52,385 bases of DNA, taken from the NCBI GenBank assembly GCA_038904395.1, contig JBCKKC010000005.1, positions 1 through 52,385 on the forward strand, given 5' to 3'. This document shows positions 28,224 through 49,100 of the stretch, in pieces; position 1 is the stretch's first letter; every line of letters begins with the position of its first letter. This DNA comes from Acidimicrobiia bacterium. Its GTDB lineage: Bacteria; Actinomycetota; Acidimicrobiia; UBA2766. Below the pieces are notes generated by a model. That model was given only the letters and a program-made list of their open reading frames with translations, was not told the DNA's origin and made no database searches. The position numbers were made by a program, and so were the translations under genes.

Positions 28224-28242
28224 CTCAATACCCTCCATGTTG

Positions 28243-31200: not shown

Positions 31201-34200
31201 CCCTACACCTGAGCGTTGGAGTCGATGCGCGAGCCGATTGGCGGCGGCGTTCAATTCGCCATATGTCATCGTGGCGTTTGACGCGATCAACGCCGGCGCT
31301 TCGGGCGCTCGCTTTGCCGCATCCTCAAACATCTCATGGATTGGTGGATCCGTGGAATAGGGGGCCTCAATGTCGTTCCAACCGTAAAGCATGTCGTGGC
31401 TATGGGCCACCGATATGAGCTCTAGATCTTTCACTTTGGCATCGGGCTGATCGCATGCAGTAATCAGGATGCGACGGAGCGCTTCGGCCAGGCTATGCAT
31501 GGTGGCAGGGTCGAAAAGGTCAGCGTCATACTCGAGCGTGCCAAGCAGTTCTCCCTGATGCTCACTCATGTATAGAGAGAGATCGAAATAGCACGACCGC
31601 TGCTCAACACGGACTGAATCAACCTCAAGGTCGCCCCAGTGCCCCAACGGGGCTGAGTGATTGATCGCCAAGGCTGCGAGATCTGCCTCGCCAACTCCTA
31701 GACCATCTTGGTAGGCAAACGACGCTGTCACGAGTTGCGATCGTTCCCCATTGGTGCCGCCATCGCCCCGCACGCAAGAGAGTGACTCGACAATCCGGCC
31801 AAAGGGCATGTCCGCATGGTCAGAAGCTGCCAGTACTGCCGAACGGGTTCGCTGAACGTGAGTAAGGAATGTTGGGTCATCACTGATGTCGATGGCGATG
31901 GGTAGCAAGTTCACGAGATAGCCCACGAGCGACGCAAAACGGGCCTGATTGCGACCCGAGTTCACAAATCCCAGCACAAATTCATCCTGGCCGGCGAAGC
32001 GCCCGAGTAGGGCAGCAAAAGCGCCATAGAGAACAGTCGGGATGCTGACGCTATGTTCTTTGGAAAGTGTCCGCACAGAATGGGCCACTTCAGCGTCGAT
32101 GCGAAACTGATAGTCAGCTCCACGGAAACCGCGTGTGGGCCGACGGTGATGATCGAGCGGTAGATCCAACGCCGGAGATTGGCCAATAGCATTCACCCAG
32201 AAAGTTTGAAGGTCCGCGGCCGAGTCACCGTCCAAGATCTGTTGCTGCCACTCTACAAACTCGCGGGGATGAGCATGGGCGTCCGAAGATGGCATGCCAC
32301 TATCGAGACGCGGCCCCTCATAGCGTGCTGAGAGCTCGTTCACGACTACGCCGAGCGACCAAACGTCCATGACCGTGTGGTGGGCGACAAGCAATAGCAC
32401 GTTCCGAGCGGGAGTTTGCCTGAACAACACAGCCCGAAAGAGTGAGCCACCTGCTATTTCGAACGGCCTGTATGCCTCTTCATCAAGTAAGACTTTCAGT
32501 TCAGCATCAGTACCGCCGAGTGAGTCACGGACGTCAAGATGCCACTCCTGCGAAGTTACGACCTGGTCCACGCCGCTACCGGTCGTAGTCAACGTGGTAC
32601 GCAAAGCACCATGGCTGTCAACGATGCTTTCAAGGGCGGCTGCTAACTTTTCGACATCAAGTTGGCCCGAGAAGGCGACAGCACGAGGAAGATTCAGGGT
32701 GGCAGGATCTTGAGCCACTTGAGACTGAAACCACAGCATGCGCTGGCCATATGAAAGCGGAAAACTCGCGCTTGCGTCGGCGCCTAGGTCAGGTTCCGAC
32801 GTAATCGCAGTCCGCATTGATCGACCTCCGCTCGCCACAATCACCTCGGCGAGATCTTCAATAGTGTGGTCGGTCAATATTTCTTCAAAGCTAAGCTGCA
32901 CACCTAGCGCAATCTCAACCTTGTGGCGCAATTCGATGGCCTTCAGTGAATCCAAACCTTGCAGGGCCAGCGGCTTTGTTGTGTCAACATCACAAGCAAG
33001 CACATCAGATGCGATGCTCTTCAGGCCTGCAACCACCTCAGGCCTAGATGCGAATGAGTTGGGAGCCTTTGAATTGCTTGCTTCGCGGCGCAAAGCAGTA
33101 AAGCCTGGATTGCTTCGCTCCGCTCGCAATGACGAAAGGGCCGGCATCGACGCCGGGGCTTCGGGGACGTGAATGGCTACGGAGGTGGCATCAACGTCGT
33201 TCGAGATTGTCTTGGCGACAACGCTGTCCGCCGGAAATGCCGCTAGCGTGCCGTTCGCGTAGGCCTGGCTACACATTGAGCGCCGCGTCTTGCCACTCGT
33301 TGTAATCGGTATCGACCGCGGAGGCACCACGAGCACGTGGTCAAGATCGAGGCCGTGTCCTGCTACAGCGGCTTGGCGGATTAGGCGTTCTCTACGCGCA
33401 ACGTCTTCGGGCCTAGTGTCATTACTTTCGTACATAGCGCAAATTGGAGCAGCCCCACCAGGGTCGTCGCTCACTTGAAATACGGCGACTCGACCGAGGC
33501 TCTCATCGTCACAGGCCTCCCTAATTGATGCCTCGATGTCTTCTGGGTAGTGATTTGCCCCTCGAATGATGATCACATCTTTTTGCCGACCGCATATGTA
33601 GAGGTGATCAGCGATACGAAAGCCCAAGTCGCCCGTGCGAAGATATCGTCCATTTCCGCCTGGCCCGCCCTCAAGGGTTGCGGCAAATATCTCTGCGCTC
33701 AATTCGGGTTTTCCCCAGTAGCCCTTTGCCACGCTGGCACTGCGCAGCCAGATCTCGCCGATGATGCCCTCGCCAACACGCTTTCCATCGCCTGTCACGA
33801 TGGCGATTTCCACATCAGGGATCATCATGCAACCAACAACATCCGTGCTTTGGGCATCACCAACCGCCTCAACAACCTGACGATGTGTTAGCGCTTTTGA
33901 GTCAACAGCAATGCTTGTCGGGCCGTGGGCGTCTGATTTGCCGGCTGCTAACAAAGTCCCTTCAGCGAGCCCATAACACGGCAAAAACGCCGCATGGTGA
34001 AATCCATACAGTGAAAACGTGTCGTCGAATAATTGCAGAGTTGATGCTCGTACAGGTTCCGAGCCGCTAAAGGCAACCTTCCAGCAACTCAAGTCAAGGT
34101 CTTGACCGGCGCTCAGCTGAGCCTTTGTTGCGCACAGGTCATAGGCAAAGTCGGGCCCGCCGCTCAAGGTTCCTCGATATTTACTGATTGCTTCTAGCCA

Positions 34201-35246: not shown

Positions 35247-36167
35247 TCAACGATGCTTGAGAATCGTAAGGAATTGTTCCATAGCTTCATTGTCTGGCTG
35301 CTCAGGACCGTTCCAACGAGTCTCGCCCTCCCAGTCGATCGTGCTTGGCAGTACTTGGGGAAAGAGTGGTCCACCAATTGGATCGCCTGCGCTAAGGCCG
35401 TGATTCCACAGCAGAGGCAGAACGGCGTATTGAGGCGTATATTCGACGCCGTCGCCGAGCCATCGTGACACAAACGCTCGGCGCCGCCTTTTGCCACCGG
35501 CATAGACAGCACTGTGCAGAGCCTTAGGATGAAACAGCACTATGTCTCCTGGTTGCATTTCCCACGACAGAATCTCGTCGTTAGCGATCGTTGGGAGCTC
35601 ATCAAAATCGTTGCGTTCGTCGGAATCAGCCCATCCGGGAGTAACAGGCCGGAATGATTCCACGAAACGATGTGATCCACGAGCAACACGTAGTGCGCCG
35701 TTATCGGGGCCGCACGCATCGAGGGTCATCCAGAACGAACACACCTGATATCCGTTGATTGGCCATGAACTGACGTCTTCATGCCATGGCGTACTTATTC
35801 CGACACCAGGCTCTTTGACGAAGATTTGGTCATAGAACGCACGAACAGACCGCGAACTGAACAGTTGCTGGGACAGACGAGGGAATGGTGAAAAGTAGAC
35901 CAAGTCGCGAAAGAAATCATCGACCTTCCACATGAACGCATCACCGGCAAATGCTGCTCCGAGAAGCTGCGTCGCTTGAGCAAGCTCGGTTGGCGGAGCT
36001 TTTCGGATTCGCTCGACAGCGGCATCAATTGAAGCGACGAGCTCGTCGCCTACAGCATCCTTGATCAGGATCGCTCCGTCGCGATGAAACGCCGCTATCT
36101 CACTTTCTCGCAAATGATTCTTGGGCTGATCCGGGAGGCGCGCAAACATGTCATACCTTCTTTTCAC
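35247..36167 (-). CDS. PhyH-family Fe(II)/2-oxoglutarate dioxygenase
   Basis: FHRDG, KEPG...TPWHED, NGALRVARGSH, PGDIVLFH...LHS; 4-bp overlap with the PPTase gene. Confidence 0.92.
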   Translation of the reverse strand: MKRRYDMFARLPDQPKNHLRESEIAAFHRDGAILIKDAVGDELVASIDAAVERIRKAPPTELAQATQLLGAAFAGDAFMWKVDDFFRDLVYFSPFPRLSQQLFSSRSVRAFYDQIFVKEPGVGISTPWHEDVSSWPINGYQVCSFWMTLDACGPDNGALRVARGSHRFVESFRPVTPGWADSDERNDFDELPTIANDEILSWEMQPGDIVLFHPKALHSAVYAGGKRRRRAFVSRWLGDGVEYTPQYAVLPLLWNHGLSAGDPIGGPLFPQVLPSTIDWEGETRWNGPEQPDNEAMEQFLTILKHR

Positions 36168-36910
36168 ATCGCTAGCAGTTTTGCATTTGAGTCAAGATCG
36201 ACATCAATCAAGCGAACAGAGCGGGGCGATCCTATGCAGGCCAGGTGTCCTACATATGGTTCGGGTAGGGGCAAATCGACCAGAGACACGGCCTTGGGAT
36301 CTGTTGTAAGCTCGGGCGCATGATGTAGTCCGGCTGGCTCGCCCGGCTCGGCAACCACCACTTTGTCAGGATCTGCAGCCAGACCGAGGCCAAAAGCCTT
36401 GAGCACAGCCTCCTTCTGTGTCCAAATGGAGAGCACACCACGCTCATCGTAGGCATGTTCAGGAAACTTGCGCCGACCCAGCACTGCTCTTTCAAGCGAA
36501 GCCGACCTATGATTCGAACGGCCCATGACCTCAATATCAACACCGATTTCAACCCCGGCCGCGACAGCAACAACGACCGCATTTCCCCTGCTGGAAACCG
36601 AAAAACTCACGTTCGTATCAGCAATCACATGCGGTTTACCGTGACCATCATTATCGCAATGGTTGCACTCCCGAGAAATGACTACCTTGTCGTGAGTCGT
36701 GCCTAGATATTGCGCAAGTATGAGCTGCGTAAGTGCCCTGCGCAGCGTGAAACGATCAGCGTCGAGTCGGAAATGGAATCGTTCGAGACGTTGGCGCTCG
36801 CCCGCCGTTAGTAGGGCAACCAACTCGTCCATATCGCCGCCAATAGCCCCAAACCACACATCACAGTGCGTAGCCAATAGCTCGGTAGGTCCAGAAATAA
36901 GATCAATCAT
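36164..36910 (-). CDS. Sfp-type 4'-phosphopantetheinyl transferase
   Basis: HGKP, FSVSS, IGVDIE, WTQKEAVLKAFGLGL. Confidence 0.93.
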   Translation of the reverse strand: MIDLISGPTELLATHCDVWFGAIGGDMDELVALLTAGERQRLERFHFRLDADRFTLRRALTQLILAQYLGTTHDKVVISRECNHCDNDGHGKPHVIADTNVSFSVSSRGNAVVVAVAAGVEIGVDIEVMGRSNHRSASLERAVLGRRKFPEHAYDERGVLSIWTQKEAVLKAFGLGLAADPDKVVVAEPGEPAGLHHAPELTTDPKAVSLVDLPLPEPYVGHLACIGSPRSVRLIDVDLDSNAKLLAM

Positions 36911-36946
36911 GAGAGAAAAACAAGAATGGTATCCATGAAGCCCTCG

Positions 36947-37057
36947 CGTCATCCTGAGGGAGCGCAACGAGCAATTCAAATGGATCGAACATGTCGGTTT
37001 GTCTGCGGCTGCGCCGCAGGTGGATCCTCACGGTCGCTGCGCTCCCTCAGGATGACG
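36947..37057. repeat. CGTC-type REP/REPIN-like element with 20-bp perfect terminal inverted repeats
   Basis: cgtcatcctgagggagcgca ... tgcgctccctcaggatgacg; an inverted homologue lies at 43079-43180. Confidence 0.9.
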
Positions 37058-37304: not shown

Positions 37305-40300
37305 TCAATTCTCGAGTCCAGCCACCTTGGCATTCACCCACGGCGTCCATTCCGCCACCTGTTCCATTAAGTCATAGTGGTCACTTTCGACATGAAACAC
37401 GTCAACGTTGAGACCTAGCTCCACGAGGGCCGAGTACTGGCGATTCTTCTGTTCGGGGTGACCGGCTGCACTGGCACTCACCAAGCGCACACTAACCGGA
37501 GATGCGAAAGGCTTGGGCCTGTGACCAGCCATCATGTTAAGCCAGTGCTGATAGCGATCGATCTGTGATTGGCTTCCGAGTCGGTCAAGCACGTCCAAGT
37601 CAGGGGCCACATCATCAATTACCCCGGGATCAAGATGGGTGTCCAGCAATGTGACGGCCACTTCATAGCCATGTGAAATCATCACATGTGCCACATCAAG
37701 GGCAAGGATGCCTGCCGATGACCAGCCGAGCAGTTCATAGGGTCCATCGATTGGCTGAGAACAGATCGCCTTTACGGCTTCGGGAACGAAATCTTCAATG
37801 TGACGCGTATCGGCCGACGGCGGCTTTACCCCAAAAACCTGCCTGTGTTGACCAAGTTGAACGGCGGCGGGCCAATAGGGCGTAAGAGAACCATGGGCGG
37901 GCAATACGAAAATCGGGCTGTCAGCTACTCGAGACGTCGTTTCGATGTCGCTGAGCAATGTGAGGCCTTCAGACACATAGACTCCCTGTCGGTCATGAAC
38001 GGGAGAACCGGCGCCGAATTCCGGGCGACCCGCTGACAACTTCTTGATCAGATCTGCCTGGTCTTTGATTGTCATTGCAGCGAAGAGATCGGGTAGAGAG
38101 GGAGAGACGTTGAAGGTCTTGCTCATAGCGCTACGCAGACCAATCAGAGTTAGCGAGTCACCGCCGAGTTCAAAAAAGTCATCGTCGGACCCGACAGACT
38201 CAATGGAGAGAAGTTCAACCCAAATTCGACCAACGGCACTTTCAACCTCGTCGAGAGGTTCTTGTCGAGGGATGGTCGCGTGTTCGACAGCGGCCTCAAC
38301 GGCAGGCAAGTCGTGATAGTTGACCTTGCCATTGGTCAATGTCGGGATAGCGTCGATAAACATGAACACGCTGGGCACCATGCTCAGGGGGAGATATTCA
38401 GAGAGCCAAGACCGCAGGGTCGAAGACTCTAGGGCAACGTCATCCTCAGGAACAACATAGGCAACTAGCCGTCGCGCTCCTGCATCTTCGGTAAAAGTAA
38501 TAACAACGGCGTTAGCAACTTGTGGGTGTCGCCGCAGGGCCACTTCAATCTCGAGTGGTTCTACACGCACACCGCGGATTTTTTCTTGCCTATCAATCCG
38601 TCCGATAAATTCAAGAGTTCCATCACCTCGGTAGCGAACGACGTCTCCGGTCCTATACATCCTCACGCCAGGTCTGCCATCGAACGGGTCCGGCAGGAAA
38701 CGTTGCGCTGTGTGGCCAGGCGCGCCAGCATATCCTCTAGCCACCCCGTCACCACCGATAAAGAGCTCACCGCAGGCTCCTATCGACACGGGCTGCAGGT
38801 CGCCATCGAGAACATAGCAGCGGGTATTCCTAATGGGGCATCCAATGGTGACAGACGAGCCTGGCTCGAGTCTCGATGTCGTCGACCAAATCGTCGTTTC
38901 GGTTGGGCCATACATGTTCCACACTTGAGCCCCTGTGGCAAGCAGATCATCGCAAAGGTCCCCTGCCAACGACTCACCTCCAACCAACACGCGCTTGCCA
39001 GTGCCGTTGCGCCACCCTGCATCTAAGAGAATCCGCCACATCGTGGGCACTGACTGGATCACATTGGCACCCGATGCTTCCATTTCTCCGATTGCTGATG
39101 CCGGATCGGCCATCCAATCAGATGGAGCAAGGGTCACATGTGCACCACAGGCCAAGGCTCCGAGGGTCTCCAGGATCGAGATGTCGAATGTCGGAGCTGT
39201 GAGCGAGTAGACCCGGTCGGACGGGCCTACTCCTGGCTCGAGTCTCATTGCCTCAATAAAACTATGTGCGCTCGTATGTGTGATTTGGACACCCTTGGGC
39301 TCGCCCGTTGAACCGGAAGTAAATATGACATAAGCCAAGTTGTCTGGACTCACCGCAACCGACGGATTGTTGGCCTTGGGGTCTTGTCCGTTGCCAAGCA
39401 CCTCATCCAGGCACATGCTCGTCACTCCGAGAGCAGCTTCAACGGCATCTGACCTTGATGGCACCAGCACCAAGCTAGATTGAGCGTTTGCCAGCATGGC
39501 GCTGCGCCGGGCCGCTGGAGCATTCGGAGAGAGCGGCAGCCAGGCCCCTCCTGCTTTTAAGATGGCCAGCATCGCAATAACACAGTCAATCGAGCGTTCC
39601 ATCTGAACGCCCACAACGTGCTCGGGCAAGACACCACCCGCAATCAGGTGGGTAGCCACGACGTTCGCTCGTTCATTTAGCTGACCAAATGTGAGCGTGG
39701 TTGCACCCGAGGTCACTGCAGGGTCATTGCCACGCGATAATGCTTGATCCTCGACCAGAGTGTGGATACAGCGACGCACTTCAGAGTTGTCAACTGGCCG
39801 GTTCCACACTTTTAATAGTTGGAGCGACTCATGGCGCGAAGCCGTCATGAGGCTGCGCAATGGCCGGTCCTTGAAGCGGACCATGCCCTTCAGCAGGTCT
39901 AGGTATCTCGTGACCAACAATTCAATGATTGCATCATCAAAGAGTTCGGTTGAATACTCCAAAGCACCACTCAACTCACCGCCACTCTGCTCAATCAAGA
40001 GGCTTAGATCGAATTTGGCCCCCTGTGACTCAAGCGGCAACCAAGTTGCTCCAACCGGCCCAAAGTCGAGTTCGGCTGAGGTGACATCAACGAGGCTAAA
40101 AGAAACCTGCGCTAGCGGCGAAATCGATAGGTTACGCTCCGGCGAAATCATGTCGACAATGTCTTCAAAGGGAACGCTGCGGTGCTCCAATGCTCTGAGA
40201 ACGCGACGATGCACCCCGTTCACGTTGTCTTGAACGGAGCCCGTCCGATCTAGTCTCGCCCGAATTGGCAACAGGTTGATGAAACAACCGATCGTGTGCT

Positions 40301-42947
40301 CTGCGTCGGCATCGTCACGTTGGAGATTCGGGCAGGCAACCACGAGGTCGTTCTCGCCGCTGTAGTCGCCCAGCAAAACGGCGAACGCCCCAAGCATTAG
40401 GTTGTGCAGACTTATGCGGCTAGCACGAGCCCAGCCGTGCAGCGCCGTGCCAAGATGAGCGTCAATTTGAAAGCGATGCGTTTTGCCTGCATGCAGAGCC
40501 CGAGTTGGGCGTGGCCTATCATGTGGAAGATCAATAGTGCGGGGAGCATCGGCTAGTTCACCTTGCCAAAATTCCATATCGGCCCGATATTTTTCAGACT
40601 GGCGTTGGGCCAATTGTCTTTGCACAAGAGTCTGATATTGGACTGGCACCGGCCGCAATGGCGATTGCTCTCCGATGCTAAACGCCTTGTACAACATGCT
40701 GAGCTCGTCAAAGAACATAGCTGTTGCCGCGGCGTCGGCTGCCGTGTGGTGGCACACCACAACAAGAACGTGACAGTCGTCATCCAGACGCGCAAGGCCG
40801 ACTCGGACTGGCAGGTCACGTTGAAGATCAAACTTGCACCCCACGAACTTGCGCACCGGCTCGGACTCTAACCAGGTCTCAATACCCTCATCAGCAGCGC
40901 CGGCCTCAAGGGTGACAATTGACACATCTGGCGCGTTCCGCACGAGTGCCTTCGGTGATCCATCAGCCACCACGATGGAGGTGCGAAGGGCCTCGTGCCG
41001 ATGCATGATCTCGGTTAGGCAGCGCTCAAGGATCGCCACGTCGAGTGGCCCATCGAAGGCAACAGCGGCCGGCATGTGCAGAGAAGAACCCGCAGTGCCA
41101 AGTTCCTCTAAGAACCAGAACCGCTTTTGGGCAGAGGATAATTCGGACAGCTTCGATTCAGGCGCAGGGATCAGCGGAAGGCGAATCCGCGACAGGTGAT
41201 GCGCCCCCGAAAGAATGTCAATCCGCGGGGGTGGTGACAACTCTGGCGTTGCCGCGTTATCGCAATCGGCCCCGGTAATTGCTACCCGAATCCTGCTGCC
41301 GGGCGAAAATACATACGATATTGGATGCAAATCGAAGGCAAGTTCAATGGGTGATGAGCCGACGGGCTCAATATCGGTTGATAAGCCTCTGTGATAGGGC
41401 AGCCCGAGGCGCTCAAGTGAGTCCTGGGCGGTGATCCTATGTGAAGCCCGTAAGCAGCCTTCTGTCACATAAGTCGACTTGCCAGCACTATCGACCTCTT
41501 CGAGATAGACAAATAGATCGAAGTCGGGCGCGGCTGTGCGAGCGTAAAGATGCACGACCGGATGCCCGGTGATTTCCGTGCCTTCTACCAGCGGTTCCGA
41601 GGTGTAGCAAAGCGCTTTCTCGTCGTTCTCGGCCATGTCGCCATAATGGAACGGCCCGCCATAACCACTCACCCATCGGCTGCCAGGGCCTGACGTGGTT
41701 GTGTAGTCCACTTCGTAGCTATCGAAAGCATCCCCTTGATCAGGTGCACGCTCTGACAGAAGTCCTGAACCCACATGAAAATAGAAGTCGGCCGGAACCT
41801 CATCTTGGAGCGGCCAATGGTCAGTGGTGCGCCATTCATCTCCCTTTGGAGCACCCAAAGTGTAGTAACTGATGGCCGGATCATCCGTTACGCCCGTGTC
41901 AATACCCTTGAGCCAATAGTCAAACCAGCGCTTGTGTTGATGAGAAAGATTGAGTCCTGAACCACCAGCTTGCCCAGTGGCATGCGACCAAGGGCCAATA
42001 ATTAGCTTGTGAGAGACACTGAGGTTTTTGTGCCACAACAGCGCATCACGCGTCCAAATGTCATACCAACCGCCAAGATGGCAAACGGGAATAGCCGCAT
42101 CATTAAGGGCCGCTAGACGTTCATGCGGACTGCGGGCAAAATAAGGTTGTTCCCCCTCAGAAAGCTGCGAATCACGCAGGGGCAACTGCTCGAACATCGC
42201 TACAGTGTCGCTATTGCGAGCGTGATCTCGATGAGCCCGTGCGAGCAACTCGCCGTTCGGGTCATCATCAAGGGGCACTGCTGCCGCTGTCATGTCGTCG
42301 TCGCGAACACCATCACCCCAAGAGCGGGCAAAGTCATCCCTGAAAATGCCGCCATCCCATCCGAACGCGTATAGATCGAACAGAGCCATTTGCGGAAAGA
42401 TCGCCTTGAGATGCGGCGGCGCTGCGGAGGCGGCCAAGTACTGCGATATGCCAAGGTAAGACCGCCCAAACATGCCGACATTCCCGTCACACCAGTCTTG
42501 AGCGGCAATCCATTCGGTAATGTCATAGGCGTCACAGGCCTCGACGGGGGCAAATGGGCCGTTGTTGATTCCGCACGACGCACCAGTTCCACGCACATCA
42601 ACGACGATAACTACATACCCCGCGTTGAGCAGATGCGCTGCGTAAGGAAAGTTGTCGAGCGAGATGTCCGCCGTGGATCCTGAGTCGATGACGGACACAT
42701 CGACCTCAAGGCCAAGTAGCCGGGCCTTCTCGAGAAATTCGGCCCCAGCCGGCCTCTGGTGAACCTGGTGATAGCGGTCATGTGCCCAAACAACAGGTAA
42801 CGGCCGCGCAACCAGCGCACCGGATTCAAGTGGACGGAAAACATAGGTTGCCAGGAGCGTAGCGTCGCGCATTGCAACATAGCTTGATTGACACACCCAA
42901 TCTTGCGCCAAGTTTCCGTCTGCAGATTGTGTAATGGTAGCGACCAA
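37305..42947 (-). CDS. NRPS termination module with N-terminal CocE/NonD hydrolase: CocE-C-A(Gly)-PCP-TE
   Basis: CocE motifs MRDATLL, DVRGTGAS, GRSYLG, GWYD, GPWSH; C HHTAAD; A pocket read as DILQLGMIWK; PCP LGGDSL; TE GWSSAG and DHY. Confidence 0.92.
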   Translation of the reverse strand: MVATITQSADGNLAQDWVCQSSYVAMRDATLLATYVFRPLESGALVARPLPVVWAHDRYHQVHQRPAGAEFLEKARLLGLEVDVSVIDSGSTADISLDNFPYAAHLLNAGYVVIVVDVRGTGASCGINNGPFAPVEACDAYDITEWIAAQDWCDGNVGMFGRSYLGISQYLAASAAPPHLKAIFPQMALFDLYAFGWDGGIFRDDFARSWGDGVRDDDMTAAAVPLDDDPNGELLARAHRDHARNSDTVAMFEQLPLRDSQLSEGEQPYFARSPHERLAALNDAAIPVCHLGGWYDIWTRDALLWHKNLSVSHKLIIGPWSHATGQAGGSGLNLSHQHKRWFDYWLKGIDTGVTDDPAISYYTLGAPKGDEWRTTDHWPLQDEVPADFYFHVGSGLLSERAPDQGDAFDSYEVDYTTTSGPGSRWVSGYGGPFHYGDMAENDEKALCYTSEPLVEGTEITGHPVVHLYARTAAPDFDLFVYLEEVDSAGKSTYVTEGCLRASHRITAQDSLERLGLPYHRGLSTDIEPVGSSPIELAFDLHPISYVFSPGSRIRVAITGADCDNAATPELSPPPRIDILSGAHHLSRIRLPLIPAPESKLSELSSAQKRFWFLEELGTAGSSLHMPAAVAFDGPLDVAILERCLTEIMHRHEALRTSIVVADGSPKALVRNAPDVSIVTLEAGAADEGIETWLESEPVRKFVGCKFDLQRDLPVRVGLARLDDDCHVLVVVCHHTAADAAATAMFFDELSMLYKAFSIGEQSPLRPVPVQYQTLVQRQLAQRQSEKYRADMEFWQGELADAPRTIDLPHDRPRPTRALHAGKTHRFQIDAHLGTALHGWARASRISLHNLMLGAFAVLLGDYSGENDLVVACPNLQRDDADAEHTIGCFINLLPIRARLDRTGSVQDNVNGVHRRVLRALEHRSVPFEDIVDMISPERNLSISPLAQVSFSLVDVTSAELDFGPVGATWLPLESQGAKFDLSLLIEQSGGELSGALEYSTELFDDAIIELLVTRYLDLLKGMVRFKDRPLRSLMTASRHESLQLLKVWNRPVDNSEVRRCIHTLVEDQALSRGNDPAVTSGATTLTFGQLNERANVVATHLIAGGVLPEHVVGVQMERSIDCVIAMLAILKAGGAWLPLSPNAPAARRSAMLANAQSSLVLVPSRSDAVEAALGVTSMCLDEVLGNGQDPKANNPSVAVSPDNLAYVIFTSGSTGEPKGVQITHTSAHSFIEAMRLEPGVGPSDRVYSLTAPTFDISILETLGALACGAHVTLAPSDWMADPASAIGEMEASGANVIQSVPTMWRILLDAGWRNGTGKRVLVGGESLAGDLCDDLLATGAQVWNMYGPTETTIWSTTSRLEPGSSVTIGCPIRNTRCYVLDGDLQPVSIGACGELFIGGDGVARGYAGAPGHTAQRFLPDPFDGRPGVRMYRTGDVVRYRGDGTLEFIGRIDRQEKIRGVRVEPLEIEVALRRHPQVANAVVITFTEDAGARRLVAYVVPEDDVALESSTLRSWLSEYLPLSMVPSVFMFIDAIPTLTNGKVNYHDLPAVEAAVEHATIPRQEPLDEVESAVGRIWVELLSIESVGSDDDFFELGGDSLTLIGLRSAMSKTFNVSPSLPDLFAAMTIKDQADLIKKLSAGRPEFGAGSPVHDRQGVYVSEGLTLLSDIETTSRVADSPIFVLPAHGSLTPYWPAAVQLGQHRQVFGVKPPSADTRHIEDFVPEAVKAICSQPIDGPYELLGWSSAGILALDVAHVMISHGYEVAVTLLDTHLDPGVIDDVAPDLDVLDRLGSQSQIDRYQHWLNMMAGHRPKPFASPVSVRLVSASAAGHPEQKNRQYSALVELGLNVDVFHVESDHYDLMEQVAEWTPWVNAKVAGLEN

Positions 42948-43226: not shown

Positions 43227-43377
43227 GGAAGGCTGGTAGCGGCCCTCGGGCCCAGAACACGTGAATGGCTACCTACTTACAAACAAAATGAGTCATCTCG
43301 CTAATAGTGTTTGGCGAGGTCGGAACTTGCGTCTCTCACGAAAGAGTGCATCTGTTGGAGTGGAGGGGACTGATACT

Positions 43378-44643
43378 GTGCCAGACAATCGCCCGGTAGC
43401 AACAATTGAAGGTAGCGCTGGACTCGACCAGGCTCTCGCGCATTGCATCAACCCGCTGATCCAGCACGCGCAAGGCTCACATTCGCGTCATCTGGGACGC
43501 TTCTATGCTGAATCATCATATGAGCAACGACGTCATGAGCCAGACGCAATAGACCTCACTTTTGGCAATCCGCACGAAATGCCTCCGGACGGTCTCATCG
43601 CTCTGTTGCAAGAGGCAGCTATTCCAAAACGGGCCAACTGGTTTTCATATCTGCGCCATCATGAACCCGCCCGACAGGCTATTGCATCGACGCTATCGGA
43701 AGAGTTCCAGGCAACGGTCACGCCCGGCCACATCGCTATGACAAATGGGGCCTTTGCCGGTCTAATGACATGCTTGCGCACCGTGTGCACACCCGGGTCG
43801 GAAGTGATCTATTTCACACCGGGATGGTTTTACTACGAAGCGATGATTCTGGCTGCTGGGGCAAGTCCGGTCGCTGTGCCAGCAGATCCTAGAACATGGC
43901 AACTCGATCTGAATTTGCTCGAGGCAAGCCTGTCAGAGAGAACGAGTGCTGTAATTATCAACACTCCGAACAATCCAACCGGTGCGATCTACAGCGACGA
44001 AACTCTCCAAGCCCTCAGTGCGATTCTTTCGAAGGCGTCAAATCGTATCGGGCGCCCGATCTATGTTCTCTCAGACGAGTCTTACAAGCGCATAGTCTTT
44101 GACGACAATACGAGTGCAAGCATCGTCGCTCATTACCCGTGGTCATTTCTCATCTACACCTTGACCAAAACACTGCTTATGCCGGGCGAGCGCATTGGCT
44201 ACCTTGCACTATCTCCGCACATGCCCGATGCTGGCGAGATGTCTGAAGCTATCACCGTTACCCAACTGATGACTGGGTGGGCTTTTCCCAACAACACATT
44301 GCAATACGCGCTGGCAGATCTTGAAACTTGGAGTGTCGATGTCGGCCCGATTCAGCGCCGACGCGATCTCATGGTCAAGGGTTTGCGCGAGTTGGGATTC
44401 GAAGTAACGCAAAGCGCTGGTACCTTCTATCTTCTTGTCCGGTCGCCCGATCATGACGATTGGGCGTATTGCGAAATGCTCGCCGAAGTTGGCCTGCTCG
44501 TTTTACCTGGCTGCGTGATGGGGGCTCCGGGCTATTTCCGTATATCACTGACAGCACCGGATGATCAGCTGCATTCAGCACTTGAGCGGCTTAAGTGCTT
44601 TGGGCTGCCCTCGCCGGAAATCGACCAGTCCAACGCCCGATGA
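43378..44643 (+). CDS. PLP-dependent aminotransferase, class I/II
   Basis: INTPNNPTG, SDESY, TLTKTLLMPGERIGY (PLP Lys), YFRISL; GTG start after GGAGGGG. Confidence 0.92.
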   Translation: MPDNRPVATIEGSAGLDQALAHCINPLIQHAQGSHSRHLGRFYAESSYEQRRHEPDAIDLTFGNPHEMPPDGLIALLQEAAIPKRANWFSYLRHHEPARQAIASTLSEEFQATVTPGHIAMTNGAFAGLMTCLRTVCTPGSEVIYFTPGWFYYEAMILAAGASPVAVPADPRTWQLDLNLLEASLSERTSAVIINTPNNPTGAIYSDETLQALSAILSKASNRIGRPIYVLSDESYKRIVFDDNTSASIVAHYPWSFLIYTLTKTLLMPGERIGYLALSPHMPDAGEMSEAITVTQLMTGWAFPNNTLQYALADLETWSVDVGPIQRRRDLMVKGLRELGFEVTQSAGTFYLLVRSPDHDDWAYCEMLAEVGLLVLPGCVMGAPGYFRISLTAPDDQLHSALERLKCFGLPSPEIDQSNAR

Positions 44644-44666: not shown

Positions 44667-46112
44667 TTGAATTCTGATGTAGAGGTTTATCTCAAGCGAG
44701 CACGAATTGCCCAACAAGCTATCGCTCATTGGGACCAAGAACTCGTTGACAACATGGTCAGGGCTGTTGCGTGGCAGAGCTATGCACCAGCAAACGTGGG
44801 TCTCCTATCTGATCTGGCCTATGAGGAAACCGGGTTAGGCGACCCGGTTGACCTCTTCGCCTTGCATCGACAGCGCGTGATTGGCACGCTGCACGATCTT
44901 GAAGATGTACAGACAATCGGCCCCATCGAAACACGACTCGCAGAGGGGCTCGTGAAATTCGCTAAACCCGTAGGCGTGATCGCGGCCGCGACGCCGGCAA
45001 CAGCTCCTTGTTCGGGAATCACCTGCAATGCCCTGCAAATGATCAAGACCCGCAATGCCGTCATTTTTAGCCCCAATCCGCGCAGCCAAGCAGCTGCGAT
45101 CAAAACTGTAGAAATATTGCGGATTGGCCTCGAAGCAGCTGGGGCGCCACCCGACCTGCTGCAGTGCCTCACACCTAGCACCCGCCAACGCTCAAGCGAG
45201 CTCATGAAAGGTGTCGACCTCGTTGTGGCCTCGGGTGGGCCGGGAACAGTCGAGCGAGCGTATACCAGTGGGACCCCCGCAATCGGAGCTGGCGTTGGCA
45301 ATCCCAGTGTCATCGTCGACGAAACCGCCGACCTGCAAGCTGCTGCCAGCATGACCGCTGCAGGCGCCGGCTACAACAACGGAACATCTTGTTCGTCTGA
45401 GAGCAATGTGCTTGTGGCCGAGGCTGTCGTAGCCGAATTCAGAGAGCTTCTGTCTGAATGTGACGCACACATTTGCAGCAGCGTCGAGTCTGAACAAGTC
45501 AGCAAGTTACTTTGGCCCGAGGGAACTGTGCTAAATCGCGATGCGGTCGGCCAACCGGCCCCTGTGCTCGCCCAAATGGCCGGCTTCCATGTAGATGTGA
45601 GTTGTCGAGTGCTGGTCGTGCAAGCTACAGACTCGTCAATTGAGAACCCTGTGTTCACGGAAAAACTCGCTCCAGTACTCACACTCGTGCCATTTCAAGA
45701 CTTTGCTGAGGCCATTCAAATAGTCAAAACGATCGGCGACAAGTCGGGCCGGGGCCACAGTTGCGGTATTCATAGCTCAGATGAGTCTCGCATCAACGAA
45801 GTGGCGCGTCACGTCGAGTTCTGTCGCTTGATCGTCAACCAATCGACAGCATTTGCCAATAGCGGAAGTCTCGGCAATGGCTTACCGTTTACGTCAGTCG
45901 TTGCTTCTGGCACATGGGGAGGCTGCGCCCAGTCTGAAAACATTACCTGGCGCCATTTCTTAAATTACACGTGGGTCTCGCGCCCAATTACTCCAACAGA
46001 ACCCGTCGAAGACCAAATTTTTGGCAAGTGGTGGCAGTCAGAGGCATACGCGGAACTGGAAGAGGTCGCCATCGCCGACACAGACCGTGAACGGAAAGTA
46101 GCACCCTCGTGA
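44667..46112 (+). CDS. CoA-acylating aldehyde dehydrogenase family protein (SauS/SucD/AdhE-N-like)
   Basis: KPVGVI, KTRNAVIFSP, GGPGTV..AYTSG.PAIGAGVGN, catalytic TSCSSE, EKLAPVL, GTWGG...SENI. Confidence 0.88.
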   Translation: MNSDVEVYLKRARIAQQAIAHWDQELVDNMVRAVAWQSYAPANVGLLSDLAYEETGLGDPVDLFALHRQRVIGTLHDLEDVQTIGPIETRLAEGLVKFAKPVGVIAAATPATAPCSGITCNALQMIKTRNAVIFSPNPRSQAAAIKTVEILRIGLEAAGAPPDLLQCLTPSTRQRSSELMKGVDLVVASGGPGTVERAYTSGTPAIGAGVGNPSVIVDETADLQAAASMTAAGAGYNNGTSCSSESNVLVAEAVVAEFRELLSECDAHICSSVESEQVSKLLWPEGTVLNRDAVGQPAPVLAQMAGFHVDVSCRVLVVQATDSSIENPVFTEKLAPVLTLVPFQDFAEAIQIVKTIGDKSGRGHSCGIHSSDESRINEVARHVEFCRLIVNQSTAFANSGSLGNGLPFTSVVASGTWGGCAQSENITWRHFLNYTWVSRPITPTEPVEDQIFGKWWQSEAYAELEEVAIADTDRERKVAPS

Positions 46113-49100
46113 ACGCTCCCAGCCAATCGAGCCTGGCCCAACGTCTTGCCGAACTCCCACCCAAACAGCGAGAACTGTTGAAAGAACGTATCCGTCAGTC
46201 TGATACATCATCGGCAAGGACCATTCCGCTTCGTGCCGGCAAGAGTGCCCCACTGTCATTCGCGCAGGAACGCCTCTGGTTCTTGGAGCAGATCGAGAAT
46301 GGATCGGTTCACCCAAACGATGCCATGTTGCTTCGGTTCGAAGGTGCCTTCGACCATGCAACATTCGATGCCAGCGTGCAAGAAATCATCAAACGCCACG
46401 AGATTTTGCGGACACGATTCGAGACAGACTCCAACGGGCTGCCCACGCAGACCACGCTGGGCTATGAAACACTCCAAATCCCAATTGTGGCCGTAGATCT
46501 TCCAGACCCTGCCGACGCTCAAGAGTTCGTCTTGCGCGAACTAGAAAAAGATCTTGAACAGCCACTCGATCTAGCAACCCCACCCCAGATGCGACTGACC
46601 ATCTACCGTCAGTCGCCCGAGTTGCATTTCGCTGCCATTACGATCCACCACATCATTTCAGACCTCTGGTCATTTGGAATTGTTATCCGTGAACTTACTG
46701 CGCTGTACGCTGCTTTCGCTCAAGGTAAGCCGAGTCCACTTCCGGCGCTGACGGTTCAGTATGGCGACTACGCCGCATGGCAACGTGCCCAAATGGCCGG
46801 ATCGAAGCTCGAAGAAGATCTTTCATATTGGAAACATAACCTCGAGGGCGCTCCGGCAGTACTTGACATTGCCCACCTTGATACGAATCGCCCCCCGCAA
46901 CGTTTCCAGGGGGCATCAAGTCATTTCACTGTGAACGCCGATGTGACCAAGCGAATCAAGAAGTGGAGCCATCAGAGCGGCTTCACACTGGCGATGACCC
47001 TGCTCGCGCTGTACAAAGCCGTCCTGAGCAAGCACGCCAATGAAACCGATGTTGTCGTTGGCATGCCCGTCGCGACACGGTCACCTCAACTTGAGGGGCT
47101 CCTAGGGTGCTTTCTCAACATGGTCGTGCTGCGCACCGACCTATCGGACAACCCATCTTTGAGCGATGCCGTCCAGCGCGTTAAAGACGCCTACTTGAAC
47201 GCTAGCGACCACCAAGACCTGCCTTTCGAACGTCTCGTAGCTGAGATCCAACCGCAACGGTCTCGGCTTCATCACCCTGTCTTTCAAGTGGCGTTTGCTC
47301 TACAGAACACCCCGCTTGAGCCATTTTCGGTTTCTGGGCTCACGATGACACACATCCAACCACCCAGTGGCCGATCACGCCTTGATCTGACGCTTCGAGT
47401 GACAGAAGTCAACGGCGAGTTAGATTGCGAACTTGAATATGACGTGGATATTTTCGAGCCCGGCAAGATCGCTCAGCTAGCTAAACATTTGCAGCACACC
47501 TTTGAGGCTGCAGCGGCGGATCCATCGACAGACATTCAAAACATGGCGCGACTGCCCGAAGATGAACGCTTCATGGTGCTGCAAGCCTGGAATGACACCT
47601 CAGTTGAATGGGATTCCGAGCTGCTTATTCACCGCATCTTTGAGGAACGCTGTGCGGTGACACCCAACGAAATAGCCGTGATCTCCGAAGGCGGATCAAT
47701 TACGTATGCGGAACTTAACGCCAAAGCAAATCAACTTGGGCGGTTTCTGCGGCATCTGGGCGTACGGCCAGAAGTGCCTGTAGGCGTATGCATGCGTCGA
47801 TCAATATCCGAGGTCACGGCAATACTCGCAATCCTCAAGGCCGGCGGCTACTACGTACCCGTCAATCCTGATGATTCTTCTGACCGCTGTGACGAAGTGC
47901 TTGATGACGTCCAGGCAGTCATCGTGCTGGCCGACACAAATATCGTTGACGACATTTTCGCACCGGGCCGTCGAATTGTCGATGTTGAAGCCGAATCCGA
48001 CACGATTGCGCAATTTGACACCCACAATCTCGATAATTTGAGTCTGCCCGACAACCTCGCGTACGTACTGTTCACGTCTGGGTCGACGGGGCAGCCAAAA
48101 GGAGTAGCGGTTCACCATCGAGGCTTCTGCAACCGCATTCTGTGGGGACAGCGAAACCATGCACTTGCCCCGGGCGACCGCGTGCTGCGCAAAGCGCCAT
48201 GTGTTTTTGATGTGTCTCTGGACGAACTCTTCCGAGCTTTATTCACCGGAGCGACCTCCGTTCTGGCAAAGCCGGCGGCGCACTTCGACCCTAATGAGCT
48301 ACTAGCGGAGATCAACAAATACGGGGTGACAGACCTTGACTTCTCACCCCCCGCCCTGCAAATCTTTCTCGACACCCTGGGCGACGGCAAATGTCCGTCT
48401 TTGCAGCGAGTTGTATCGGGCGTGGCTACACTGCCACCTGCCACGATGGCCGCTTTCCACGAAACAATTGGCACAAGGCTAGACAACCTCTACGGGCCGA
48501 CAGAGGTCTCGGTTTCGTGCACAGCCTGGAAGTGCACTCCCGACGACATGCCCGCTCGTGTTCCCATCGGCCGTCCCATGTCGAACGTGCGCATATATGT
48601 GCTCGATAAATATGGCGAACCCGCTCCAGTGGGAGTACCAGGAGAGATCTATGTCGGAGGAGCAGGAGTTGCCAGAGGCTACCACGGCCGCCCTGATCTG
48701 ACCGCAGAGCGATTCGTGCCCGACCCCTTCAGCAGCGGCGGAGGCGAACGTCTCTATCGAACCGGCGACATTGGCAAATTCACGTCGAGTGGTGACCTCA
48801 TCTTCTTGGGTCGATCTGATAATCAAATCAACATGCGCGGCCACCGAATTGAACCCGCCGAGTTGGAAGCCAGGTTGACCGAGCACCCTGACGTCGAGGC
48901 TGCCATCGTATTGCTCAAAACACGAGCCGACAAAGATACTTGCCTGTGTGCATACATTGTCGCAACCGACGGATCCGACCCCAGTCCCGCCACCTTACGA
49001 GCGCACATGCGACAACGTCTTCCCGAATATATGGTTCCGTCGGCCTATGTATCCATCGATGCCTTGCCTTTAACAAGAACGGGCAAGATTGACCACGCAA

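Follow-up and report, generated by a model that had tools for sequence, protein, structure and literature searches.

A 1880-amino-acid open reading frame (ORF) of an Acidimicrobiia bacterium encodes a serine hydrolase of the CocE/NonD family at the front of an NRPS protein, an arrangement that is rare but conserved. The ORF (37305..42947, minus strand) lies in contig JBCKKC010000005.1 of assembly GCA_038904395.1, analyzed over a stretch of 52,385 nt (the window), and runs from the hydrolase through a condensation (C) domain, an adenylation (A) domain, and a PCP to a thioesterase (TE), as delimited with the ORF list and translation, Pfam, and TIGR00976. The hydrolase is predicted to be catalytically competent and has apparently become a built-in station of the NRPS. 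A search of one literature library turned up no paper on a CocE/NonD domain within an NRPS.

The hydrolase domain and the module behind it

According to the ORF list and its translation, 37305..42947 is a single unbroken frame that opens the minus-strand operon. It starts with a TTG codon at 42947 and is preceded by 11 more open codons (1891 aa from stop to stop), and the GC content is flat along the gene (0.54-0.56). The hydrolase domain occupies residues 1-596 (41160..42947, minus strand). Residues 24-594 match TIGR00976 (CocE_NonD) over positions 1-549 of the 550-position profile (E 1.7e-100; 337.6 bits, cut-off 66.3), and Peptidase_S15 (PF02129; residues 28-323, E 8.7e-46, 157.2 bits) and PepX_C (PF08530; residues 352-564, E 1.4e-31, 110.5 bits) both score above their cut-offs. 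With a nearly full-length profile match in one 1880-aa frame, the original prediction of a complete CocE/NonD hydrolase in frame with an NRPS module was borne out. PF00975 has no match in residues 1-600, so the N-terminal domain is not a type I TE, and Pfam likewise returned no TubC-type docking domain (PF18563) anywhere in the protein.

The motifs GRSYLG, GGWYD, and GPWSH pair with GVSYLG, AGWYD, and GPWSH of cocaine esterase (CocE; phmmer E 5.7e-35). Ser163 (42459-42461), Asp296 (42060-42062), and His322 (41982-41984; all minus strand) thereby line up with the CocE triad (S117, D259, and H287), and the intact Ser-Asp-His set that had been claimed is present. Tyr164 pairs with the Tyr that follows the CocE nucleophile in the same alignment. 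Tyr59 (in DRYHQ) is invariant in our alignments and lies in a region outside the significant phmmer alignment to CocE; the oxyanion-hole tyrosines of CocE are Tyr44 and Tyr118. A clade-specific insertion of ∼25 aa follows Tyr59, next to this presumed oxyanion Tyr. S163, D296, H322, Y59, and Y164 are invariant across nine fused proteins and across 24 relatives, and the triad columns read S, D, and H in 59/59 rows of a larger alignment.

An AF2 model of the domain (pLDDT 83, pTM 0.85) is predicted to have the three-domain fold consisting of an alpha/beta hydrolase, a helical cap, and a C-terminal beta jelly roll. Its best Foldseek matches are CocE structures (1JU3 and mutants; E 3e-41, TM 0.73-0.76, identity ∼24-25%), followed by SACOL2612, the alpha-amino acid ester hydrolases (2B9V, 1MPX), and PepX. 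By phmmer, too, the domain is nearer CocE (E 5.7e-35) than the ester hydrolases (E 1.4e-10 to 1.9e-6). The protein has neither a predicted signal peptide nor a transmembrane stretch, and ∼17 residues precede the S15 fold.

A linker of ∼8 residues leads to the C domain (residues 602-1044; 39816..41144, minus strand; motif HHTAADA; PF00668 E 1.2e-77). Its best solved relatives are Txo2 (E 3e-59) and Txo1 (E 8e-56), while the CDA starter C domain reaches only 2e-14; judged by these matches, it belongs to the elongation type. The chain therefore has to move past the hydrolase, which is not the final release step. The A domain (residues 1066-1541; 38325..39752, minus strand) is complete, with TIGR01733 matched over positions 1-409 of 409 (410.8 bits, cut-off 317.4) and with AMP-binding (PF00501) at residues 1066-1406 and AMP-binding_C (PF13193) at residues 1466-1541. 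It is followed by the PCP (residues 1572-1634; 38046..38234, minus strand; motif LGGDSL; PF00550 E 4.4e-12) and a divergent type I TE (residues ∼1650-1880; 37308..38000, minus strand; motif GWSSAG). The original prediction counted two serine hydrolases in the protein, the TE being intact. A match to the TE of NocB (phmmer E 1.5e-5), with GWSSAG over GWSFGG and LLDTH over LVDSH, agrees with this; PF00975, however, stays below its cut-off (21.1 bits, cut-off 26.4) and spans residues 1702-1764 only, which leaves the second hydrolase less certain than the first. A C-terminal SDHYDLM motif was read by eye.

Conservation of the fusion and of its gene neighborhood

The combination also occurs elsewhere: 11 of the 17 non-self matches of 1034-3290 aa carry Peptidase_S15, PepX_C, and Condensation together (Pfam). 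The hydrolase-C junction is common to 11 other protein clusters (from Micromonospora, Nonomuraea, Streptomyces harbinensis, and metagenomes), which by sequence comparison rules out an assembly artifact in the window ORF. The fused loci compared came from five Micromonospora species, Nonomuraea, a Jatrophihabitantaceae MAG, and two metagenome records. Their hydrolase domains form one clade, together with that of a single hydrolase-PCP protein, with a support of 100 in two trees. Among the fused proteins of this rare lineage the hydrolase always sits, via a short linker, on the N-terminus of an ordinary elongation C domain, and the junction is unchanged from the window lineage to the actinomycetes at ∼50% identity. 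The window protein is the deepest-branching fused member and keeps a complete A domain alongside the hydrolase; its actinomycete homologues retain, as judged by eye, only an A-domain remnant of ∼90 aa, and PF00501 is absent from 10 of the 11 fused homologues carrying the three Pfam domains.

Outside the clade, ordinary enzymes for which a signal peptide is predicted make up most of the domain's close homologues (87/118, counted with a crude script), so the fold itself is silent on carrier-bound substrates. Two sister lineages are associated with assembly lines. One is represented by locus L022, the one locus at which the genomic context of a docking-domain hydrolase was inspected. There, the hydrolase gene overlaps the end of a TE-less PCP-C-A-PCP gene, and 28 of the 120 listed homologues of this hydrolase bear a TubC-type NRPS docking domain. 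L022 also encodes a type II TE of its own, and release there may in fact be due to that enzyme. The other lineage contains P0248, in which a MupA-family natural-product luciferase-like monooxygenase (LLM) is fused to the hydrolase. In the tree, the docking and LLM-fused forms fall together with the fused clade, in a group without signal peptides (SH-aLRT 88 and 94, below the tree tool's mark of 95), and the window domain belongs to a clade that is separate from the docking-domain hydrolases but grouped with them. CocE/NonD hydrolases were seen in three or four architectures that may belong to assembly lines: with a docking domain after a TE-less last module, as LLM-hydrolase, as hydrolase-C-(A)-PCP, and as hydrolase-PCP.

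Besides the fused gene, the minus strand of the window encodes a HetI-like, Sfp-type phosphopantetheinyl transferase (36164..36979; PF01648, PF22624), a MysH-like Fe/2OG dioxygenase of the PhyH family (35247..36167), and a lipo-initiation NRPS of 2247 aa whose domain matches read FAAL, ACP, C, methyltransferase-interrupted A, and PCP (28243..34986), with orthologues of 45-48% identity in Micromonospora and Nonomuraea. These are followed by a 940-aa ketosynthase (KS)-(AT remnant)-ACP protein (25467..28289; domain matches and motif alignment) and, directly after it, a luciferase-like FMN monooxygenase that is distantly SsuD-like (24461..25543). Divergently transcribed on the plus strand are a class I/II PLP aminotransferase (43261..44643), a SauS/EutE-like CoA-acylating aldehyde dehydrogenase (ALDH; 44667..46112; NF047625 428 bits, below the cut-off of 600), a 1090-aa C-A-PCP elongation module (46109..49381), and an MFS exporter (49378..50745). 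Micromonospora carries orthologues of the PhyH enzyme (53% identity), the aminotransferase (52%), the acylating ALDH (53%), the C-A-PCP module (47%), and the exporter (43%). The gene set common to all loci with enough flanking DNA consists of the FAAL-ACP-C-A(MT)-PCP protein, the KS-ACP protein, and the flavin-dependent LLM. Of the 9 fused loci, 8 have an LLM orthologue upstream of the fused gene, and KS, C1, and A(MT) orthologues were found in all 6 loci having at least 5 kb of upstream DNA.

The KS of the KS-ACP protein keeps its Cys (NCSSS) and has Asn in place of both catalytic His residues (NATGT and NIGN at the HGTGT and NIGH positions), a Cys-Asn-Asn pattern present in the window and in 6/6 orthologues. 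The Cys-His-His set of an elongating type I PKS ketosynthase is thus not present. No AT was detected in the protein (PF00698 reaches only 12.7 bits). We therefore read it as a non-elongating KS0 carrier station and not as an elongation step.

Possible roles of the fused hydrolase

As a rule in C-domain structures, the N-terminal end of the domain is where the upstream (donor) carrier docks. Our preferred reading, which we put forward tentatively, is that the hydrolase is an acyl-serine station resembling a TE, placed next to the donor side of the final C domain, and that it processes an intermediate parked on the KS0-ACP protein. Its substrate, the direction of transfer, and its link to the LLM are what we infer. 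The lipo-N-methyl-aminoacyl chain made by FAAL-ACP-C-A(MT)-PCP would be moved, without elongation, by the Cys-Asn-Asn KS0 to its own carrier, where the adjacent LLM would oxidize it. Ser163 would then take an acyl group from the carrier-bound intermediate in the manner of a thioesterase, and either water or a nucleophile within the chain would resolve the acyl-enzyme, so that the intermediate is trimmed or rerouted before the C domain forms the last peptide bond; the C-terminal TE would finally free the product. Removal of a lipid-bearing leader is one form that such trimming might take. In this form it includes the on-line removal of the FAAL-installed lipid that had originally been proposed, a possible subcase. 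The constant partners (FAAL module, KS0-ACP carrier, and LLM) would suit it. Against it stand the cytoplasmic placement of the domain ahead of a C domain and the fact that the lipopeptide-delipidating enzymes named in PMC13592322 are Ntn-hydrolase-family acylases.

An in-cis proofreading role, in which the hydrolase would clear misacylated or stalled carriers like a type II TE or a trans-AT PKS acyl hydrolase, is unlikely but is the strongest of the alternatives. Its targets would be the KS0-ACP carrier or the actinomycete PCP that lacks an A domain of its own. The window cluster contains no stand-alone PF00975 thioesterase (Pfam), some carriers of the assembly line lack a cognate loading domain, and a hydrolase by the donor site could equally well destroy an intermediate. 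Assembly lines offer precedents for editing by in-cis or dedicated hydrolases, namely an editing TE domain in CylH (PMC5707447) and the acyl hydrolases of trans-AT PKSs (bioRxiv 10.1101/2023.08.11.552765). However, the window domain stays fused at one junction from the window lineage to the actinomycetes at ∼50% identity and has a clade-specific insertion beside its presumed oxyanion Tyr, and at L022 a docking-domain hydrolase coexists with a type II TE, so the two are not obviously redundant. Editing enzymes are usually separate and dispensable.

We regard it as still less likely that the domain is an ATP-independent loader, the second idea of the original prediction, which would charge a carrier of the line with an acyl or aminoacyl group drawn from either an ester or a CoA thioester; one candidate donor would be the product of the CoA-acylating ALDH, a conserved member of the cluster. 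Decay of the A domain to a ∼90-aa remnant in the actinomycetes fits this idea better than the acyl-serine station, as does the hydrolase-PCP protein, and acyl transfer is known within the family from the alpha-amino acid ester hydrolases (2B9V and 1MPX among the fold matches). The hydrolase-PCP protein of the fused clade (P0068), in which the hydrolase leads directly into a PCP, resembles a loading didomain, but it is a lone sequence on one 10.5-kb contig. The deepest-branching member, from the window, has a complete A domain next to the hydrolase, which argues that the hydrolase did not arise to replace the A domain, and in the Micromonospora cluster the orphan PCP can be charged by an A protein that stands alone. 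The domain is, moreover, nearer CocE (E 5.7e-35) than the closest ester hydrolase (1.4e-10).

Tailoring of the free product after assembly is improbable. Here the hydrolase would cleave an ester or amide, activate a prodrug, or serve self-protection, and would be fused for coexpression only; hydrolytic loss of the FAAL-installed lipid after release would be included. Beyond the clade, the nearest homologues seem to be free hydrolases, mostly with signal peptides, the cluster begins with a FAAL lipo-initiation module, and finished lipopeptides are known to lose their lipid, at least in the systems treated in PMC13592322. The delipidating enzymes of those systems are, however, not CocE/NonD proteins, and the window domain has no signal peptide, with only ∼17 residues before the fold. 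In every case the hydrolase joins the N-terminus of a C domain and never a free end of another enzyme, and the NRPS docking domains on relatives argue for substrates tethered to a carrier, not for free ones. A scaffold that recruits the upstream carrier by docking, with no chemistry of its own, is highly improbable: the hydrolase does sit where split NRPSs have docking elements and the KS0-ACP protein has a tail of ∼35 residues beyond its carrier domain, but the triad and the two Tyr residues do not vary in any fused member, at ∼45-55% overall identity, which is not expected of a dead scaffold.

Beyond the acyl-serine station itself, a wider and more doubtful proposal is that CocE/NonD hydrolases are an unrecognized class of NRPS catalysts, and that in the fused clade the hydrolase, together with the KS0-ACP carrier and the LLM, performs on-line oxidative-hydrolytic trimming of the FAAL-installed lipo-N-methyl-aminoacyl leader. 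If this holds, the lipid would be a traceless handle, removed whole or in part from the tethered chain inside the cell and not in a periplasmic prodrug step.

Comparison with known systems

CocE of Rhodococcus (1JU3; TIGR00976, MEROPS S15 type member) shares with the window domain the three-part fold, the triad motifs, and the Tyr after the nucleophile. It is a free catabolic esterase, whereas the window domain, ∼24-25% identical to it, forms the N-terminus of an NRPS module and has the extra ∼25-aa insertion after Tyr59. The alpha-amino acid ester hydrolases of Acetobacter turbidans and Xanthomonas citri (2B9V, 1MPX) have the same family and fold; they form acyl-enzymes and pass aminoacyl groups to amines, the chemistry behind the idea of ATP-independent transfer. 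Their sequence tie to the window domain is much weaker (E 1.4e-10 to 1.9e-6). In these enzymes an acidic cluster by the catalytic Asp binds the free alpha-amino group; the window protein reads D296-I-W-T-R-D, which shares with CocE an aromatic residue at +2 and does not appear to be that acidic cluster.

The type I TE domains of NRPSs are likewise serine alpha/beta hydrolases inside a synthetase, and acylation from a carrier thioester is common to them and the proposed mechanism. The window hydrolase belongs to another family and stands ahead of a C domain, not after the last PCP. In having two serine hydrolases, the window protein resembles the tandem-TE synthetases, reportedly those of lysobactin and arthrofactin.

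ClbP-type systems have an N-acyl-D-Asn leader from a starter C-A(Asn)-PCP-E module and an S12 peptidase of beta-lactamase fold that is periplasmic or anchored in the membrane. A ClbP-type prodrug peptidase was rejected for the window protein, which lacks a PF00144 (S12) match, a signal peptide, and a transmembrane stretch, and so was a ClbP-type leader system, since the first module of the window, FAAL-ACP-C-A(methyltransferase)-PCP, contains no epimerization domain. A lipopeptide acylase of the Ntn-hydrolase type was rejected on the S15 alpha/beta hydrolase fold; PvdQ, Tem25, and PdnM are Ntn-hydrolase acylases in the account of PMC13592322, which gives PvdQ a periplasmic signal peptide.

According to PMC10835440 and bioRxiv 10.1101/2024.11.16.623930, SurE, a stand-alone thioesterase of the penicillin-binding-protein type, off-loads NRPS products and shows a non-TE hydrolase family recruited to NRPS lines, which the docking-domain CocE/NonD proteins would parallel. 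SurE-type enzymes are free proteins with a beta-lactamase (S12) fold, whereas the window domain has an S15 alpha/beta fold and is fused. We know of no comparable recruitment as a fusion before a C domain.

In enacyloxin chain release, a non-elongating KS0, which lacks decarboxylation residues, reportedly transfers the chain onto a carrier of its own, from which an NRPS C domain is served, an arrangement matched by the layout of KS0-ACP followed by hydrolase-C. In the window, by contrast, the transfer would run mid-line, with an NRPS PCP as donor and a PCP-like carrier as acceptor, and the double His-to-Asn pattern is not known from a described KS0. In the myxothiazol and melithiazol pathways, MtaG and MelG reportedly combine an LLM-type monooxygenase domain with a TE and cleave the chain oxidatively to a terminal amide, so that a flavin LLM oxygenase and a serine hydrolase jointly process an intermediate on its carrier, at the cost of a sacrificial residue. 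The window LLM is, in contrast, a separate protein of the SsuD-like subfamily, and its hydrolase is CocE/NonD and not a TE. The LLMs of the window and of P0248 belong to different subfamilies and have no detectable similarity to each other, which makes the oxygenase-hydrolase link one of analogy; as such, the P0248 fusion and the constant LLM neighbor suggest a logic similar to that of MtaG and MelG.

The fused protein and its distribution

The stretch from 37305 to 42947 on the minus strand holds one uninterrupted reading frame of 1880 codons, which begins with a TTG start codon preceded by an AAGGGG stretch; upstream of the start, the frame stays open for just 11 codons more. The source bin is 2.0 Mb in size and 70% complete, and the window is one whole contig of it. 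The hydrolase (41160..42947) matched the TIGR00976 profile nearly end to end (residues 24 to 594 on profile positions 1 to 549 of 550; E value of 1.7e-100, 337.6 bits, cut-off of 66.3), with Peptidase_S15 at residues 28 to 323 and PepX_C at residues 352 to 564 in the Pfam scan. A linker of about 8 residues leads to a condensation (C) domain (residues 602 to 1044, Pfam/NCBIfam scan), followed by a complete adenylation (A) domain (TIGR01733, profile positions 1 to 409 of 409), a peptidyl carrier protein (PCP) domain (residues 1572 to 1634, Pfam/NCBIfam scan), and a weakly matching thioesterase (TE). The three motifs of the window hydrolase aligned with the cocaine esterase stretches that hold the nucleophile, acid, and base (phmmer E value of 5.7e-35). 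An AlphaFold2 model of residues 1 to 596 (pLDDT of 83, pTM of 0.85) retrieved cocaine esterase structures as the top Foldseek matches (E value of 3e-41, TM scores of 0.73 to 0.76), ahead of SACOL2612, alpha-amino acid ester hydrolases, a thaumarchaeal aminopeptidase, and PepX. The profile match, the alignment, and the fold confirm the original prediction of a complete CocE/NonD hydrolase with Ser-Asp-His motifs, and the uninterrupted frame places it in frame with C-A-PCP-TE, as had been proposed. The further claim that the TE is intact held only in part: its nucleophile and Asp motifs aligned with those of the NocB TE among solved structures (E value of 1.5e-5; GWSSAG on GWSFGG), but its PF00975 score of 21.1 bits lies under the cut-off of 26.4, and SDHYDLM was assigned as its final His motif only by eye. 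Because of the NocB match with its aligned motifs, we regard the TE as divergent and probably functional.

A homologue search confined to proteins of 1034 to 3290 amino acids returned 18 matches, including the window protein. Eleven of these (P0003-P0013) combine S15, PepX_C, and Condensation domains and share 44 to 53% identity with the window protein across the hydrolase; their sources are Micromonospora (four clusters, one of them with 25 sequences), Nonomuraea, Streptomyces harbinensis, a Jatrophihabitantaceae metagenome-assembled genome, and metagenomes. The remaining six are fusions of unrelated kinds, with partners that include beta-lactamase, S9 peptidase, and metallophosphatase domains. 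The arrangement is thus shared by 11 further protein clusters, and since independent genomes carry it, the fusion architecture is settled. Ser163, Asp296, His322, Tyr59, and Tyr164 are invariant across nine aligned fused proteins, as are the first His and the Asp of the HHxxxD motif of the C domain. When the domain was scanned against representatives of 1.84 billion protein clusters, 14,239 relatives were found (E value of ≤0.001); among the best 150 of them, six representatives have the hydrolase at the N terminus of a protein of >1000 amino acids (the window protein, P0003, P0004, P0010, P0012, and P0013), none longer than 1880 amino acids. Given the independent fused homologues and the few long representatives among these 150, the hydrolase-C arrangement is real, conserved, and rare.

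The fused arrangement was found in 0 of 40 genomes from the window's own family and class, where the matches were to the C domain alone or to hydrolase pieces of at most 44% identity, so the window lineage may have acquired the cluster horizontally. All other taxon-labelled fused members belong to actinomycetes of the class Actinomycetes. The 40-genome comparison also revealed that the window's class holds a family of eight genomes of 1.0 to 1.1 Mb and a complete 4.8-Mb genome.

Relatives of the hydrolase domain

Stand-alone relatives of the domain are numerous: among 8000 scored proteins, 2746 matched at an E value of ≤0.001, and among the 120 matches listed, the closest are 44 to 51% identical to the window domain. 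A crude hydrophobicity script detected signal-peptide-like N termini in 87 of 118 relatives, and most stand-alone relatives are probably hydrolases that Chloroflexi, Acidobacteria, and other phyla secrete. Some secreted relatives carry additional domains: a beta-lactamase/PBP-like domain (PF00144) in front of the hydrolase in P0014, a PHB-depolymerase-type esterase behind it in P0239, and, in P0266, a long C-terminal extension that looks serine-beta-lactamase-like by eye only.

In a FastTree phylogeny of 135 rows, which left out P0017-P0019 and P0106, the 12 fused domains and the hydrolase-PCP protein P0068 formed one clade with a support of 100, with the window protein as its first branch. 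An IQ-TREE phylogeny of 61 chosen rows again gave the fused clade a support of 100 and placed it beside neighbors without signal peptides, namely, the myxobacterial Nannocystis and Sorangium proteins, the group of P0248, and a docking-domain group, of which the 14 sampled members formed one clade (support of 100). The branches joining the fused clade to these neighbors had SH-aLRT values of 94 and 88, which makes the kinship suggestive. Ser, Asp, and His are kept in all 59 aligned rows. The spacing from Tyr59 to Gly110 is 43 to 58 residues in the fused clade and its nearest signal-less neighbors and 26 to 29 residues in the docking clade and most secreted forms; the extra residues form an insertion beside the presumed oxyanion Tyr, a region where the AlphaFold2 model is poorly confident. 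A Blastocatellia locus (L011) with a hydrolase gene before a FAAL-NRPS gene was considered as a split form of the fusion and rejected, as its hydrolase (the same sequence as P0074 in the tree) has a signal-peptide-like N terminus and falls outside the fused clade.

Three further arrangements connect the family with assembly lines. In P0248 (971 amino acids), a CocE/NonD hydrolase that keeps its triad is joined to a luciferase-like flavin monooxygenase (LLM) of the MupA/Atu3671 natural-product family (TIGR04020, 432 bits). P0068 (696 amino acids), a single sequence from one 10.5-kb contig, has a hydrolase of the fused clade that leads directly into a PCP (motif GGTS), with neither a C nor an A domain. 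The third is a 654-amino-acid protein (locus L022, 9713-11677, plus strand) with a TubC-type N-terminal docking domain (PF18563, E value of 4.7e-17) in front of the hydrolase. Its gene overlaps the last 32 nt of a PCP-C-A-PCP gene without a TE and is followed by ABC exporters; genes for a type II TE, a PALP enzyme, an acyl-CoA dehydrogenase, and a FAAL-ACP-C protein lie nearby. The docking domain is present in 28 of the 120 listed homologues of this hydrolase (family proteins P0140-P0167 and P0097), with sources in Streptomyces peucetius, other Streptomyces, Micromonospora, Actinomadura, and Limnocylindrales. Docking-domain hydrolases were matched in 0 of 300 further sampled genomes from the class of G041, a Micromonospora genome with the fused cluster, at an E value of ≤1e-60, the sole match at this threshold being G041's own fused gene; they are rare. 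These docking-domain hydrolases are candidate NRPS release enzymes of a new, trans-acting kind.

The gene set around the fusion

The minus-strand operon encodes, in order, the hydrolase-C-A-PCP-TE protein, a PPTase, a MysH-like PhyH dioxygenase (35247-36167; MysH being the closest solved structure, E value of 3e-35), a FAAL-ACP-C-A(methyltransferase)-PCP protein, a KS-ACP protein (25467-28289), and, directly behind the latter, the LLM (24461..25543). Divergent plus-strand genes encode a class I/II aminotransferase, a CoA-acylating aldehyde dehydrogenase (44667-46112), a C-A-PCP protein, and an MFS exporter. The aldehyde dehydrogenase is SauS/EutE-like, and its best model is the acylating sulfoacetaldehyde dehydrogenase (428 bits, under the equivalog cut-off).

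Elsewhere in the window, a 1424-amino-acid ORF (11918-16192, plus strand) joins a proton-antiporter/NuoL-like membrane domain (PF00361 and PF00662) to a full DabA (PF10070, E value of 1.6e-235) and resembles a DabB-DabA inorganic-carbon pump in the form of a one-protein fusion. A 175-amino-acid ORF (8406-8933, minus strand), whose sole match is to the Cas12f1-like/TnpB TNB domain (PF07282), is probably a truncated TnpB remnant. Three large repeat proteins, a subtilase fused to NHL repeats (2-2266, plus strand), a DUF5122 beta-propeller protein of 1462 amino acids (2531-6919, plus strand), and an NHL/SGL-repeat protein of 1093 amino acids (17094-20375, minus strand), are not obviously members of the NRPS cluster.

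Comparison of the cluster proteins with the fetched fused loci by tblastn revealed an LLM orthologue (43 to 48% identity) upstream of the fused gene in eight of nine loci; the sole locus without a match (L010) has just 1.7 kb of upstream DNA. Orthologues of the KS (50 to 55%), C1 (42 to 45%), and A(MT) (49 to 51%) were present in all six loci whose upstream DNA spans at least 5 kb. The 20 kb upstream in G041 additionally encodes orthologues of the PhyH dioxygenase (53%), aminotransferase (52%), acylating aldehyde dehydrogenase (53%), C-A-PCP protein (47%), MFS exporter (43%), and FAAL (45%). The fusion point of the hydrolase is fixed at the N terminus of an elongation C domain, with a short linker, and its fixed partners are a lipo-initiation module, a KS0-carrier protein, and the LLM.

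The actinomycete clusters also add a stand-alone A protein, extra NRPS modules, and a separate C-TE protein. Both gene-scanned loci (L005 and L020) have a CmlA-like beta-hydroxylase gene directly before the fused gene, and a class III aminotransferase gene follows it in L005. In these actinomycetes, the fused protein has only a short remnant of its A domain as read by eye, and PF00501 is absent from 10 of the 11 fused matches. We considered a rakicidin/APD-lipodepsipeptide identity for the Micromonospora cluster, given its Sar-type A(MT) and CmlA-like hydroxylase, and rejected it: in term searches, PMC5075396 mentions no hydrolase, peptidase, esterase, or luciferase and PMC13110770 no hydrolase, peptidase, CocE, or luciferase, and the rakicidin/APD lines are PKS rich.

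Possible role of the hydrolase and comparison with known systems

The KS of the KS-ACP protein keeps its Cys (NCSSS) and has Asn at both sites that we take to be the catalytic His positions of a canonical KS (NATGT and NIGN), as do six of six actinomycete orthologues; to our knowledge, this double His-to-Asn KS matches no described type. An AT domain was not detected in this protein, the best PF00698 match (12.7 bits, E value of 0.09) falling on a GSATGE stretch, a vestige of one. The Cys-Asn-Asn KS and the undetectable AT led us to reject malonate extension, and because of them the protein is read from its sequence as a transacylase of the KS0 type that has a carrier of its own, which would serve as a parking place where the lipo-N-methyl-aminoacyl chain could undergo modification. 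For the C domain behind the hydrolase and that of the C-A-PCP protein, Txo1 and Txo2 are the best solved relatives and the CDA starter C domain is far weaker (2e-14 and 3e-13), so both resemble ordinary elongation C domains. The FAAL module is therefore the only evident start, and the chain must traverse the hydrolase-C protein.

Our preferred, still tentative, reading is that Ser163 captures an acyl group from the intermediate parked on KS0-ACP, probably after the LLM has oxidized this intermediate. Capture would take place at the donor-carrier side of the C domain, which is its N-terminal side. The hydrolase would thereby perform a thioesterase half-reaction, with the acyl-enzyme resolved by water or by a nucleophile of the chain, and the intermediate would be trimmed or re-routed ahead of the final condensation, leaving release to the C-terminal TE. 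Removal of a lipid-bearing leader, the first role suggested in the original prediction, is a possible sub-case of trimming; the KS0/LLM "processing station" makes it somewhat more plausible, as does myxothiazol MtaG, where an oxygenase and a hydrolase act together. A complex prediction for the hydrolase domain and the KS0-ACP carrier scored 0.00 against a mark of 0.32 and counts neither way.

In-cis proofreading by the hydrolase is unlikely; were this its only task, the fusion would be a modest architectural curiosity. ATP-independent loading, also suggested originally, would fit the decayed A domain of the actinomycete fused proteins and the existence of the hydrolase-PCP protein P0068, but the A domain is intact in the earliest-branching fused member, the window protein, and Micromonospora has a stand-alone A protein; we consider loading quite unlikely. 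Tailoring of the free product is improbable, and a purely structural role for the domain is hardly credible.

If the hydrolase acts on carrier-bound intermediates as in the preferred reading, peptide assembly-line engineering would gain a new type of catalytic module and a new family of trans-acting release enzymes. The fused gene also flags an orphan, conserved lipopeptide cluster family, and culturable Micromonospora and Nonomuraea strains carry the cluster, making the role of the hydrolase directly testable.

The full-text literature searched, which lies mostly outside subscription journals, contains no account of an NRPS with a CocE/NonD or S15 domain or of the window's cluster family. NCBI names the fused and docking-domain proteins "CocE/NonD family hydrolase" and nothing more. 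We know of no NRPS domain catalogue or genome-mining rule that includes a CocE/NonD (S15) domain, and we regard the window protein as an NRPS that carries an additional, embedded hydrolase whose family has no known earlier link to assembly lines. The profile match, the triad motifs, and the fold all assign the domain to the CocE/NonD family; it is not a type I TE, a ClbP-type prodrug peptidase, or an Ntn lipopeptide acylase. In the proposed role, it would nevertheless function like a TE or, alternatively, like the SurE-type non-canonical stand-alone release enzymes.
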